Made by a program: the position numbers. From a virus (taxonomy: Duplodnaviria; Heunggongvirae; Uroviricota; Caudoviricetes), in IMG/VR virus record IMGVR_UViG_2541047874_000003: a DNA stretch of 54,334 nucleotides; one strand, 5' to 3'. How positions within the stretch are numbered: the stretch's first letter is position 1; every line of letters begins with the position of its first letter. Positions 12,001 through 15,000 of the stretch are shown here, in pieces.

Positions 12001-15000
12001 GAAAAGTACTCGAAACTTGAAGAAGAAAGTACGCGTTTTCTCTCTCCGCGGAGCCCATTTGATCGCCATGTTCGCCCGCACTCCTGTAGCCAAAGAGTTC
12101 CGCCGTTGGGTTCTGGATATTCTCGATCGAGAAGTTCAACAATCCCCAATCATAAAACAATTCACTGATAACGAACTTTGCACACTTGCTTGGTTGTGGC
12201 GAGCTGGGGATGCGATGTTAACCGCCTGCCAGAACGTTACTCCTCTTCTTCAGGTTGCGGAGCATCGTGAAGCTGGTCGCTTCACTTCTATCGAGCAAGA
12301 ATATCCCCAGATACTCAATAAGGCACAGGCAATCCTTGCCAGAGAAACGGCACATGTAAAATTCCGGCCGTGGCAGGATGATAAGTGGAGTCGAGTTTTG
12401 CCGCATTTACGTTCGGATCGATTACAGTAGATTCCAATTAACAATGAGAAACACATAGCCACCCCGTGGTATTGAAACCATATAATGTTGGATTTGAAAA
12501 CAGATCTTTTTCCATGTATTAATAACTACATCCCCGCGAGTGATTCAAAAAGGAGGGCCCAATTTTGTCCGAGTTTTTGTATTCCCCCGCATGCCGCTGC
12601 GGAGCACTACATCTGAGTGTCTGACTAGGGGATAAAATTAGACTGGATAGTGAGAAGAAAGTGGCGTGCTAGGCTGTGCCGAGTGCTACCAGTACACCCT
12701 GGGGGTGTGCAGCTTTCGCCGAGACTGTAGTGGGTATCGGTTAATGCACGAAAAACCGAGAGGTCAGACAACCAATTTGCCGTAGGATTGTTTCCGGTGC
12801 GATACCGGTGTACTAACTGAAAGCAATGCGAAAAAGCATAAACTCGGTCCTTCAGTCGCCCTACACACTATTTACTAAGAAGGGCTAAAGCATGGATACA
12901 ATTATCACATGGATGGGAGATCGTCTGTTGGGGTGGATAACAAACAAATCCGATCTGCGGCAGAGGGCAATCACTGGATTAACTCCTGCGATTTGTTCAA
13001 CAATTTTATATACTGAAAAATTAAAACGTGGTGAGCCTAATAACCCAAACGAAGAAGAAAAACTTTATAGGCTTTGGTATGAAGCGTCTTCCCAAGTCGT
13101 AGACTTTGATCGAGAGCTGGCTAAAAGATGTTTAGATAAATCAGAATATTGGCTTCATTCTGAATTATATAGCCCTGAGAAAGTTGAAGAGCTAAACATT
13201 TCTTTGGTTGGTATGAAGGCAACGCTTGAAGGAATAAAGCACAATTAAAACCTTTGATTTGCGATAATCAACTCGCCATAATCATGTCATCGGAGCCTGA
13301 ACAACTCCGGTGACTTCTGCGCTAAACGGGGACGTTTATGCGCACACACAATCCAAACTCTCTTCTCCCTCCACAGATGCAGAAATGCACCTGCGATATA
13401 TTGTATCCAGCGTTTCACCTCTACGGAGGTGAAGCGTGAACCTACCACAAGATGGCATCAAACTGCATCGCGGTAACTTCATCGCTATCGGCCAGCAGAT
13501 CCAGCCTTATCTGGAGAACGGAAAATGCTTTCGCATGGTGCTTAAACCGTGGCGTGAGAAACGCAGTCTTTCCCAGAATGCACTCAGCCACATGTGGTAC
13601 AGCGAAATCAGTGAATACCTCATCAGCAGGGGTAAAACGTTCGCTACTGCAGCATGGGTAAAAGATGCTCTCAAACACACATACCTCGGTTATGAAAGCA
13701 AAGAACTGGTTGATGTCGTAACCGGTGAAATCACTACTATCCAGTCGTTACGCCATACCTCCGATCTTGATGCCGGAGAGATGTATGTCTTCCTCTGTAA
13801 GGTTGAAGCCTGGGCGATGAATATTGGCTGCCACCTGACTATTCCGCAGAGCTGCGAGTTCCAGCAGCTCCGCGACAAGCAGGAGGCGTAATGGCTACAC
13901 CGCTTATTCGTGTCATGAGCGGACACATCTACAGAGTACCAAATCGTCGTAAGCGTAAGCCTGAGCTGAAACCATCCGAAATACCAACACTGCTCGGATA
14001 TACCGCCAGCCTGGTTGATAAAAAATGGTTGCGACTGGCAGCAAGGAGGAACCATGGCTGATTTGAGAAAAGCAGCGCGTGGTCGGGAATGCCAGGTAAG
14101 AATCCCTGGCGTATGTAATGGCAATCCTGAAACGTCTGTACTGGCACATATCCGGCTGGCTGGATTGTGCGGTACCGGTATCAAACCGCCAGACCTGATT
14201 GCCACCATTGCATGTTCTGCCTGTCACGACGAAATCGACCGCCGCACACATTTTGTCGATGCTGAGTATGCAAAAGAATGCGCGCTGGAAGGTATGGCGA
14301 GAACACAGGTTATCTGGCTGAAAGAGGGGGTTATTAAGGCGTGAATACTTACAGCATCACATTACCCTGGCCTCCGAGCAATAATCGCTATTACCGCCAT
14401 AATCGCGGGCGCACGCACATCAGCGCAGAAGGGCAGGCATACCGCGATAACGTCACCCGAATCATTAAAAACGCAATGCTGGATATCGGCCTGGCTATGC
14501 CAGTGAAAATCCGTATTGAGTGCCACATGCCGGATCGCCGTCGCCGTGACCTGGATAATCTGCAAAAAGCCGCTTTTGACGCACTCACCAAAGCAGGTTT
14601 CTGGCTGGATGATGCTCAGGTCGTTGATTACCGCGTTGTGAAGATGCCTGTTACCAAAGGTGGGAGGCTGGAACTGACCATCACCGAAATGGGGAATGAA
14701 TGATGTTTGAGTTTTATATGGCAGAACTTCTTCGCCACCGCTGGGGGCGTCTGCGCTTATATCGTTTCCCCGGTTCTGTTTTGACCGATTACCGAATACT
14801 GAAGAATTACGCCAAAACCCTGACAGGAGCAGGAGTATGAAGTCAGAGATAACAATCAACTAATACTGTTTTGTTGATTTTTGCTTGTAATTGGCGTTCT
14901 GGTCTGATTTTTGTGGAGTAAGTTGATGCGTGATATTCAGATGGTTCTTGAGCGTTGGGGAGCGTGGGCGGCTAATAATCATGAAGATGTGACCTGGTCG

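Follow-up and report, generated by a model that had tools for sequence, protein, structure and literature searches.

ROOL and GOLLD are large structured RNAs of ~500 to 800 nucleotides (nt) that have been described mainly outside the Enterobacterales. In ToxIN loci, a promoter is followed by a structured RNA, an intrinsic terminator, and a protein gene, and the terminator is expected to set the ratio of RNA to protein. DicF, AgvB/AsxR, IsrK, and the Pas small RNAs (sRNAs) are short seed-pairing regulators, and put elements are RNAs of ~70 nt whose two stem-loops lie directly after pL or pR with no promoter of their own. A further prophage noncoding RNA, RCd22, is associated with an AbiF toxin gene and is reported to down-regulate AbiF in cis and in trans through a direct RNA-protein interaction (10.1101/2025.04.15.648962).

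The plus strand of the 54,334-nt DNA that we analyzed (the window) carries a self-contained RNA cassette at 12494-12860, in which a predicted sigma-70-like promoter is followed by an RNA of ~330 nt at 12530-12860. Like ROOL and GOLLD, this RNA is prophage borne, hundreds of nucleotides long, folded into a covariation-backed set of helices, and without a fixed protein partner, but it differs from them in its length of ~330 nt, in its restriction to lambdoid prophages of the Enterobacterales, and in matching no Rfam covariance model. Unlike ToxIN and AbiF/RCd22, it contains no tandem repeats, matches no abiF motif, and precedes at least six unrelated proteins, three of which have relatives without it. 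Attenuation leaders and riboswitches (T-box, leader-peptide, and tnaC-type) resemble it in a start at the first helix, predicted for this RNA, in the succession of a long conserved fold, a terminator, and an open reading frame (ORF), and in a candidate small ORF behind a strong Shine-Dalgarno (SD) sequence. In contrast to such leaders and to riboswitches, this RNA shows no detectable terminator/antiterminator alternative by inspection and no Rfam match; its terminator does not coevolve with the fold and is absent from several lineages, and the genes downstream share no known pathway. The prophage sRNAs named above are similar to it in lambdoid-prophage origin, possession of their own promoter, Rho-independent termination, and presumed expression in the lysogen, whereas this RNA is 3 to 5 times longer, contains long-range helices and multiway junctions, and lies ahead of the nin genes. 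Most Pas genes neighbor Q, holin/lysis, or structural genes (10.64898/2026.05.13.724894), at loci other than that of this RNA. The U-tailed terminator found in relatives would suit an Hfq-type sRNA (~50 to 250 nt), for which a length of ~330 to 365 nt and a closed two-domain fold are atypical. The put RNAs of HK022 are likewise cis-located phage RNAs of the rightward early region that lie ahead of terminators; compared by description only, they differ from this RNA in its ~330-nt length, its own predicted promoter, and its position after the replication genes. A match resembling the P22 sar RNA (RF00262) occurs at 11696-11760 on the minus strand, at the start of ant. It shares the immI-like neighborhood of the RNA, but sar, an antisense RNA of 65 nt, is distinct from it and lies 770 nt upstream on the other strand.

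Searches for a described RNA family gave the same answer throughout. A covariance-model scan, which the sequence-only reading had proposed as a check, matched no described family: none of the 4,227 models of Rfam 15 matched within 12431-12891 at E ≤10, a gathering-score scan of the whole window gave nothing over the element, and the element in five other lineages likewise matched no model at E ≤5. ARAGORN reported 0 tRNA or tmRNA genes in 12300-13000, TRF found no tandem repeats at a score of ≥30, and a repeat search gave only short two-copy matches. Keyword and sequence-string searches of the literature returned no description of this RNA, and the phage RNA motifs cataloged in a 2023 study include nothing recognizable as it. 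The RNA thus appears to be a new family, outside those already described. Two protein-binding roles were considered and set aside. The number of GGA motifs, counted by eye, is about that expected by chance and none falls in a hairpin loop, which disfavors a CsrA sponge; as a decoy for N protein, the RNA offers a P8 loop (CAGACA) and a P10 loop (GAAAAA) that are only loosely boxB-like, the latter becoming AAAA in one lineage, and there is no lambda-type boxA in the window.

The cassette stands at the entrance to the nin region, with replication gene P (9647-10348) upstream of it. Its upstream neighbor, which is not part of the element, is ant (11681-12430, plus strand), a Bro-N and P22AR_C antirepressor gene by its Pfam matches. 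The genes upstream in other lineages are unrelated to ant, and the element is also present in phages that have no ant, arc, or mnt. The sequence-only reading had singled out 12431-12891 as an ORF-free, GC-richer gap and a candidate structured RNA or regulatory element. The gap is indeed free of ORFs of ≥60 amino acids (aa), the longest within it being 48 aa on the minus strand and 43 aa on the plus strand. A 70-aa ORF on the minus strand (12250-12462) is the only one to clip the left edge of the interval. The GC content of the interval (0.48 to 0.515) exceeds that of the downstream sequence at 12900-13300 (0.35 to 0.45) and is equal to that of the 3′ half of ant (0.47 to 0.51), such that the claim of GC enrichment applies on one side only. 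The interval contains the element, but only 12494-12860 is conserved; the 3′ flank of ant at 12431-12493 lies outside it. The interpretation of the gap as a structured RNA or regulatory element is borne out by a conserved, covarying, and strand-specific fold, a putative promoter, and a terminator in relatives.

The putative promoter was read by eye. Its −35 hexamer, TTGAAA (12494-12499, plus strand), is found in the same place in all lineages as TTGAAT, TTGAAA, TTGTAT, or TTGATA. The −10 region (12517-12523, plus strand) reads TATTAA or ATTAAT, with a TG ahead of it at 12515-12516, and in relatives it is TTTAAT or TTAAAT (5/6 and 4/6 matches to TATAAT, respectively), at a constant 6 to 7 nt ahead of where helix P1 begins. 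The spacers of 17 to 18 nt are unrelated between lineages, while the hexamers stay conserved. A simple promoter scan passed over the site at 12494-12523, where the −10 region departs from the rule of that scan that position 2 be A and position 6 be T. A perfect TATAAT at 12481-12486 was considered as a second promoter and dropped, being absent from other lineages. Transcription from 12494-12523 would begin at ~12530, predicted near A12530 and thus exactly at the first base of P1, and the RNA would end at ~12860 with the last conserved bases CAGUCGCC. From the sequence, then, we infer sigma-70-type promoter activity as well as both ends of the transcript.

This transcript of ~330 nt is predicted to fold into a conserved 5′ domain and a larger 3′ domain, all on the plus strand. 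The 5′ domain (12530-12633) comprises P1 (12530-35/12628-33), P2 (12536-51/12574-90), P2a (12555-58/12567-70), and P3 (12595-603/12612-19). The 3′ domain (12641-12857) is closed by the long-range helix P4 (12641-46/12852-57) and contains three-way and multiway junctions together with P5 (12657-62/12712-17), P5a (12663-68/12684-90 and 12672-74/12678-80), P5b (12692-99/12703-10), P6 (12718-26/12733-41), P7 (12755-60/12843-48), P8 (12762-64/12771-73), P9 (12778-80/12823-25, 12785-86/12817-18, and 12788-98/12804-13), and P10 (12826-29/12836-39). The sequence-only reading had also reported several short inverted repeats. Such repeats are present, and several others found by a repeat search are chance matches; the one quoted in that reading, CCGGTGCGATACCGG at 12794-12808 (CCGG-UGCGAUA-CCGG), is the tip of P9. 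This tip covaries, with pair 279/293 changing from CG to UA and pair 283/289 occurring as AU, UA, and CG in relatives. Compensatory changes cluster in P5, P5a, P5b, P6, P7, and P9. The 5′ domain is the most conserved part of the RNA (mean identity between lineages of 87%, against 78% for the 3′ domain), and its helices are mostly invariant or altered on one side only (A-U to G-U), apart from one compensatory change of G·U to U-A in P2a. As covariation there is almost nil, the fold of the 5′ domain rests on conservation and one-sided changes.

Comparative data support this fold. Across 39 distinct homologues, 96.0% of the instances of the 94 proposed pairs in 16 helices are paired, compared to 34 to 44% when the partners are slid out of register. 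Compensatory double changes affect 23 base pairs, as against 4 to 8 in the slid controls, and 0 of 500 shuffles reach 23; the covariation score is 0.218, compared to ≤0.055 in controls. G-U combinations occupy 376 cells and A-C combinations 7, and canonical cells amount to 98% when read on the plus strand and 85% on the minus strand; the excess of G-U over A-C fixes the RNA strand as plus. Within the E. coli lineage, seven of nine single-nucleotide polymorphisms in paired columns preserve the pair. Lineage F, which was found through its cargo proteins and not through RNA patterns, keeps 80 to 83 of 89 pairs at 69 to 71% identity and contributes new compensatory pairs in P5b. The folding energy of the single sequence, another check proposed at the outset, is no better than that of shuffles (z = −0.6 to −0.9 on the plus strand and −0.8 on the minus strand), and hence the evidence for the RNA is comparative rather than energetic. 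Most homologues were retrieved by exact-match patterns, so that the conservation of the matched blocks is overstated, and relatedness contributes to the shuffle statistics in a family of narrow range and rather recent origin (≥69% identity). Taken as a whole, these data give us high confidence that a real structured RNA element is present on the plus strand.

Copies with 95 to 100% identity occur in 159 of 5,426 complete E. coli genomes (~3%), and the element is unannotated in all records listed. More divergent copies (69 to 86% identity) with different flanks were found in Klebsiella phages, Enterobacter bugandensis, Obesumbacterium proteus, and metagenomes. The known carriers are all Enterobacterales, namely, lambdoid prophages of Escherichia, Klebsiella, Enterobacter, and Obesumbacterium, and the cassette is found in isolated coliphages and Klebsiella phages as well. 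Carrier prophages are often defective, yet the boundaries of the module are sharp, and the element is intact beside decaying neighbors. A search of 185,579 species-representative genomes returned no carrier, its sole match being a chance one in Nocardia; a plasmid collection yielded no match to the RNA element, and blastn against 50,697 phage records found nothing beyond four members of the RNA family itself. A relaxed three-block pattern retrieved 8 extra loci from IMG/VR, all of them chance matches by nhmmer, which places more distant relatives beyond the reach of patterns; lineage F itself was reached only through cargo proteins. The putative promoter and the RNA together form a mosaic module of Enterobacterales lambdoid prophages.

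At every locus examined, the RNA lies directly upstream of, and in the same orientation as, an interchangeable and uncharacterized cargo gene, which is left without space for its own promoter. Most relatives have a strong intrinsic terminator 7 to 12 nt past the last helix and ~25 nt short of the cargo start codon. These terminators take the form CCGCC-loop-GGCGG-U7 or GCCACC-GAAA-GGUGG-U6, different stems in the same place, and one of them was confirmed by a terminator scan (7 pairs, T7). Two loci, L007 and L009, have RNAs that are 96% identical and terminator stems that differ, and the terminator is therefore not adjusted to the body of the RNA. Several lineages, the window allele included, have no terminator, and their cargo genes start 32 to 65 nt past the RNA; a scan of the window allele across 12431-13377 on the plus strand found no terminator-like site. 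The RNA here runs through a linker with a ribosome-binding site (RBS) (12861-12891, plus strand) straight into ORF118 (12892-13248, plus strand; 118 aa, phrog_12412). ORF118 has no match in Pfam, NCBIfam, or PADLOC, and its AlphaFold model, a four-helix bundle (pLDDT 77), is uninformative as a clue, since the best match in the PDB (E = 0.39) is not significant. In about half of the close relatives, a frameshift cuts ORF118 to 66 aa, and the RNA is intact there. At least six unrelated cargo families are found downstream of the RNA, and distant homologues of three of them were found without it. The cargo proteins were each scanned against some of the PADLOC, Pfam, NCBIfam, and PDB libraries: five uncharacterized families have no Pfam match, those that were also compared with NCBIfam, PADLOC, or PDB sequences matched none of these, and one further cargo is DUF1367.

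The 5′ domain also contains a candidate small ORF (sORF). An SD-like AAGGAGG (12550-12556) is followed, 8 nt past this 7-nt match, by UUG (12565-12567) and a frame of 19 codons whose UGA stop (12622-12624, plus strand) falls 3 nt ahead of the 3′ strand of P1. Of 37 distinct sequences, 32 retain the whole combination and 5 have a truncated or frameshifted sORF, with premature stops in three distinct E. coli variants. The SD sequence in lineage D is altered to GGAGGUG, with a spacer 2 nt shorter, and is still SD-like. Changes within the frame are mostly nonsynonymous, and the 3′ end of the SD sequence and the UUG codon are paired in P2a. By a rough estimate made without a tool, the chance of finding an SD sequence, a start codon, and 19 open codons in 335 nt is ~1%.

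Our explanation of these data is that the window holds a complete and unannotated plus-strand structured-RNA gene whose product acts in trans; taken in its entirety, we consider this just on the probable side. The trans-acting part is our tentative preference, falling a little short of probable by itself: we infer a free-standing RNA, expressed in the lysogen, that would act on a host or phage partner and only incidentally gate the cargo. Given the terminator in most relatives, most lysogen transcripts from the promoter there should end as a free RNA of ~365 nt. The only routes into the cargo would then be read-through and, in lytic growth, antiterminated early transcription. Given the absence of the terminator from the window allele, the RNA would here form the long, structured 5′ leader of the mRNA for ORF118. 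The constant orientation toward a promoterless gene, the terminator, and the conserved SD sequence and sORF fit a cis-regulatory leader at least equally well.

Such a leader, whether an attenuator or a riboswitch-like device, would let a signal control the number of polymerases or ribosomes that get as far as the cargo, the candidate signals being a ligand, a protein, or the behavior of ribosomes on the 19-codon sORF. We regard a dedicated cis-regulator of the cargo, the main rival reading, as possible though doubtful, and the free-standing trans-acting RNA as somewhat more likely. The invariable placement of the RNA ahead of a gene without promoter space and the intrinsic terminator between the two in most lineages speak for a cis leader, but no pairing between the RNA body and an antiterminator was seen on inspection by eye, nearly identical RNAs bear different terminator stems, and several lineages, the window included, have no terminator at all. 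The retention of the SD sequence, UUG, and 19-codon frame in 32/37 sequences, of an SD fit in lineage D, and the ~1% expectation by chance (a rough estimate) argue in the same direction; this has to be set against early stops in three E. coli variants, variable codons that change the amino acid, and an RBS and start buried in P2a. No Rfam riboswitch or leader matches the RNA, and because the cargo families are unrelated and uncharacterized, no common regulated pathway can be named. If the RNA instead neutralized a toxic protein encoded downstream, with the terminator setting the ratio of RNA to toxin, it would be a type III-like antitoxin, which we consider improbable. The order of promoter, RNA, terminator, and protein is that of ToxIN, with the reservation that the terminator present in most relatives is absent from the window allele; the reported restraint of a prophage AbiF toxin by RCd22 (10.1101/2025.04.15.648962) supplies a precedent, and the 183-aa cargo of a Klebsiella phage contains an R-x4-H string (RHNLLH, seen by eye). 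An antitoxin in direct contact with its toxin should covary with it, however, and here one conserved RNA precedes at least six unrelated cargos. The absence of tandem repeats and of any Rfam abiF or ToxI match, the distant homologues of three cargo families that occur without the RNA, the lack of PADLOC, Pfam, NCBIfam, or PDB sequence matches among the scanned cargos (DUF1367 excepted), and the retention of the RNA where ORF118 is frameshifted weigh against it as well.

Two further explanations dispense with a functional RNA, and we give both very little credence. The less probable of them is a protein gene, either a remnant of one, as the sequence-only reading had allowed, or an unannotated small gene on either strand. 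The minus-strand frame across the element is stop-free for 137 to 193 codons in lineage D, and two phage records carry annotated hypothetical proteins there, but the same frame has 2 to 4 stops in other lineages. No ORF is conserved, all six frames being interrupted by stops in most lineages; the variable columns are distributed without a 3-nt period (47/48/55, chi-square P = 0.68), translated fragments have no Pfam match at E ≤10, and covarying helices with a 376:7 asymmetry of G-U to A-C are not expected of coding sequence. A degraded gene therefore finds no support. The other, which we hold to be very unlikely, is that the element is functionless DNA conserved only by recent common descent, or else that it acts as DNA, as a site or as a MITE- or REP-like mobile repeat, its hairpins being incidental. 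The narrowness of the family (Enterobacterales only, ≥69% identity, 0 of 185,579 species-representative genomes), the frequently defective state of its prophages, and its ordinary folding energy are all compatible with this. Unlike neutral decay, however, substitutions between lineages fall in loops or are compensated, as the 23 double-change pairs revealed by the comparative check attest; promoter hexamers are kept while spacers are replaced, and the module retains its sharp boundaries and its integrity beside decaying neighbors. An interspersed repeat (REP, ERIC, or MITE) is ruled out by copy number, which is nearly always one per carrier genome (a median of 1 match, a maximum of 2, and one copy per fetched locus).

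A covariation-supported two-domain RNA of 330 nt has thus gone unannotated in ~3% of the complete genomes of E. coli, the most intensively annotated of organisms. Large structured RNAs are rare, and understanding one has usually brought new biochemistry or regulation to light. The present RNA is easy to approach experimentally, as it is present in single copy and with clear boundaries in culturable E. coli lysogens and phages, and natural alleles with and without the terminator exist. Its fixed place ahead of swappable, uncharacterized prophage genes marks a cargo hotspot that could be mined for new accessory or defense functions. More speculatively, and in our estimation unlikely, the RNA could be a signal-responsive sensor and gate for this hotspot, or the effector could be the free RNA, as a prophage function consisting of RNA only and directed at a host or phage machine. 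In the former case, the signal may be a factor from the phage or the host, or the behavior of ribosomes on the 19-codon sORF, and the accessory genes behind the RNA may be defense or toxin genes. Were such gating true, the RNA would be a universal switch common to unrelated effectors.

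In a lambdoid E. coli prophage of DLP12-like type, the gap at 12431-12891 lies in the early-right arm, beyond replication gene P (9647-10348) and a P22 immI-like module made up of a Mnt/Arc-like RHH gene (11116-11463, minus strand), an arc-like ORF (11530-11691, plus strand), ant (11681-12430, plus strand), and a sar-like RNA. Directly after the gap comes ORF118, an ORF of 118 amino acids (12892-13248, plus strand), then ninB/ybcN (13436-13891), ninE, ybcO, rusA, and Q. As a sequence-only reading had stated, the gap contains no ORF of at least 60 amino acids on either strand, and the inverted repeat it quoted is present at 12794-12808, at the tip of helix P9 in the fold proposed here. 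Its description of the gap as GC-richer (0.48-0.515) holds against the AT-rich downstream DNA (0.35-0.45) but not against the 3' half of ant, which is no lower. The folding energies that it suggested checking were no better than shuffled for either strand alone (z = -0.6 to -0.9), and single-sequence folding of the gap therefore proves nothing.

The prophage is of lambda type and carries the immI-like module (11116-12430) in its nin region, not in a P22-type late region. Its sar-like antisense RNA (11696-11760, minus strand; Rfam RF00262, 34.0 bits against a gathering score of 43, E = 2.8e-4) sits between the arc-like ORF and ATG 11762, probably the true start of ant, which GAAGGAAAT precedes; the layout is like that of P22, in which sar covers the ant RBS. 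In many E. coli relatives, ant is reduced to its C-terminal third and adjoins the ybcK recombinase gene. Farther downstream, a 402-amino-acid ORF (15432-16640), by eye only a candidate IS256/Mutator-family transposase, begins ~130 nt past the Q-like ORF (14911-15303), pointing to an IS inserted between Q and the late genes.

The 461-base gap sequence is 95 to 100% identical in 159 of 5,426 complete E. coli genomes, with no annotation over it among the genome records listed, and the E. coli phages Turner and IdasGreatGrand carry it at the same identity, likewise without an annotated feature. Diverged copies in Klebsiella phage Kp4856-1 and E. coli 3426 (78 to 83% identity) align only over about 12504-12858, and their flanks are unrelated. 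Exact-pattern scans recovered the RNA at 64 viral and about 28 metagenome loci, and copies in Enterobacter bugandensis and Obesumbacterium proteus stand 5' of ORF118 homologues. A sixth, more distant lineage (lineage F, 69 to 71% identity to the window) was retrieved through homologues of two cargo proteins, the products of accessory genes directly 3' of the RNA, with no RNA pattern used. Searches of the species-representative genomes and of PLSDB plasmids found no copy. Nearly all carriers among the complete E. coli genomes have a single match (median 1, maximum 2), and each fetched locus has one copy. The element is a discrete conserved module.

Comparison of 39 distinct sequences from six lineages, most of them obtained through exact-pattern matching, yielded a fold of 94 pairs in 16 helices, starting from an RNAalifold consensus in which P9, P5a, and P5b were then adjusted by hand. 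On this alignment, standard pairs fill 96.0% of the paired cells, versus 34 to 44% in slid controls with partners moved 1 to 3 columns. Compensatory changes on both sides affect 23 pairs (200 cells) against 4 to 8 pairs (12 to 27 cells) in those controls, a pair count reached in 0 of 500 shuffles, and the covariation score is 0.218 against 0.055 or less. Double changes concentrate in P5, P5a, P5b, P6, P7, and P9; the 5' domain varies so little that the case for its helices comes mainly from A-U to G-U changes and a single G.U to U-A exchange. An 82-pair version that preceded this fold has 376 G-U cells against 7 A-C cells, and the same columns are canonical at 98% on the plus strand versus 85% on the minus strand. 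Of nine SNPs that fall in paired columns within the near-clonal E. coli lineage, seven preserve pairing, and the independently fetched lineage F retains 80 to 83 of 89 pairs.

The element is thus very probably an RNA encoded on the plus strand, and the structured RNA suspected from the single sequence is borne out by a covarying fold. Its body (12530-12860, plus strand) would comprise a 5' domain (12530-12633) closed by P1 (AUCCCC/GGGGAU) around P2/P2a and P3, a conserved single-stranded linker, and a 3' domain (12641-12857) closed by the long-range P4 (GACUGG/UCAGUC), inside which lie a three-way junction (P5/P5a/P5b), hairpin P6, and a second junction of P7 with P8, a long irregular P9, and P10. 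Natural mutants useful for testing this fold include L070 (4020-4363, minus strand) and L092 (5310-5657, plus strand), two loci with several point changes inside otherwise invariant blocks, whose RNAs precede a 177-amino-acid protein (phrog_26388) starting MKNIIIDSNAW, and L174 and L179, which make up a lineage of their own, where P10 is altered and the P5b stem (GAAAGCAC/GUGCUUUC) rebuilt.

A degraded gene, the alternative for which a six-frame check had been proposed, does not fit: most lineages have stops in all six frames, the one long antisense frame, in lineage D, is interrupted two to four times in the others, variable columns lack coding periodicity (47/48/55 by phase, p = 0.68), and translated fragments had no Pfam match at an E value of 10 or less. 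By these measures the element is not protein-coding. Where conservation of the RNA is highest, there is a perfect 7-nt Shine-Dalgarno match (AAGGAGG, 12550-12556, plus strand) and, 8 nt on, a candidate 19-codon sORF (MSEFLYSPACRCGALHLSV) that runs from UUG 12565 to UGA 12622-12624 (plus strand), its stop leaving 3 nt to the 3' strand of P1. Of 37 distinct sequences, 32 have the frame intact, and lineage D keeps the likeness as GGAGGUG with a spacer 2 nt shorter. Translation is made less likely by premature stops in three E. coli variants, by codon changes that mostly alter the amino acid, and by the pairing of both the 3' end of the Shine-Dalgarno match and the start codon within P2a. The match and sORF could specify a leader peptide or serve as a decoy that binds ribosomes.

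The predicted promoter, assigned by eye, has a -35 hexamer TTGAAA (12494-12499, plus strand) and a -10 region TATTAA/ATTAAT (12517-12523) at a spacing of 17 to 18 nt; a scan with a stricter -10 rule did not list it. All lineages have a -35 (TTGAAT, TTGAAA, TTGTAT, or TTGATA) and a -10 (TTTAAT or TTAAAT) whose end is always 6 to 7 nt from the opening A of P1, and the spacers share no sequence between lineages. Upstream, ACCATAT(A/G)(A/T)TGT is conserved 15 to 30 nt before the -35 (window 12455-12493 and lineages D and E), and the window has a perfect TATAAT (12481-12486) and an imperfect direct repeat (12467-12483/12489-12505); region 12455-12493 may act as an UP element or as the operator at which a regulator controls the RNA promoter. 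At the other end, most relatives have a canonical intrinsic terminator starting 7 to 12 nt past CAGUCGCC (UACCGCC-UUGU-GGCGGUA-U7 or GCCACC-GAAA-GGUGG-U6, for example; one was confirmed by a terminator scan), about 25 nt before the next start codon. The window lineage and the other ORF118-linked lineages lack it, and 32 nt lead from the RNA end to the ORF118 RBS and ATG. Loci L007 and L009 have RNAs that are 96% identical and terminator stems that differ; RNA lineages and terminator-cargo cassettes have been reshuffled against each other, with the breakpoint directly after CAGUCGCC. Together these comparisons show a strand-specific, selectively maintained fold whose module edges are the predicted promoter and, in relatives, the terminator.

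The genes 5' of the RNA vary by lineage (ant, a TagO-like lipoprotein, a MazG-like remnant, and others), and the 3' gene belongs to at least six unrelated families: ORF118 (phrog_12412), a 183-amino-acid protein (phrog_27260), a 178-amino-acid membrane protein, the 177-amino-acid protein, a 95-amino-acid protein, and DUF1367. The five other than DUF1367 are uncharacterized and matched nothing in Pfam, nor did those scanned match NCBIfam, PADLOC, or PDB sequences. ORF118 is modeled as a four-helix bundle, for which no significant structural neighbor was found. Frameshifts shorten ORF118 to 66 to 67 amino acids in about half of its close copies (L126-L149), behind an intact RNA. The 183-amino-acid cargo of a Klebsiella phage allele (L002, 3416-3967, plus strand) contains, by eye only, RLRHNLLH, an R-x4-H string; such strings are a feature of HEPN nucleases, and Pfam, NCBIfam, PADLOC, and PDB sequences gave no support.

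Moron-type insertions in lambdoid prophages have a promoter that fires in the lysogen, and by likeness the RNA promoter would do so as well. In terminator-bearing alleles, most transcripts would then stop at the terminator, giving a free RNA of about 365 nt, and only read-through, or antiterminated transcription from pR in lytic growth, would extend into the promoter-less cargo. We tentatively favor, at somewhat short of an even chance, a free RNA that acts in trans and gates its cargo as well. In the window the terminator is missing, and the RNA would therefore be the 360-nt leader of ORF118. A dedicated cis-regulatory leader, possibly with the sORF, would account for the invariant RNA-to-cargo orientation and for the Shine-Dalgarno match and sORF; we consider it rather unlikely, since inspection found no antiterminator pairing and the terminator does not coevolve with the fold and is missing in some lineages.

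A type III-like antitoxin RNA is quite improbable: the element has no repeats, one RNA serves many proteins, and cargo genes have relatives without it, three families having more distant homologues (42 to 65% identity) in other contexts, including, at L150, an ORF118 homologue (51%) with a theta-like gene and an integrase next to it. What is left of our estimates goes jointly to coding, neutral, or DNA-level readings.

The Rfam scan proposed for the gap returned no family matching the element, and keyword and sequence-string searches of the literature found no description of it. In kind the element comes closest to ROOL and GOLLD, orphan large prophage RNAs, and in layout to type III TA loci and attenuator leaders; known prophage sRNAs (DicF, AgvB/AsxR, and Pas) are much shorter, seed-pairing, and differently positioned. 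The prophage AbiF/RCd22 pair is a related precedent (10.1101/2025.04.15.648962). By these comparisons the element looks to be a new RNA family, though of a kind known in general; the defining features of the specific families compared were absent or equivocal. On comparative sequence evidence, the gap holds a real, previously undescribed structured RNA gene, solid as an RNA, whose function is easily testable in E. coli.
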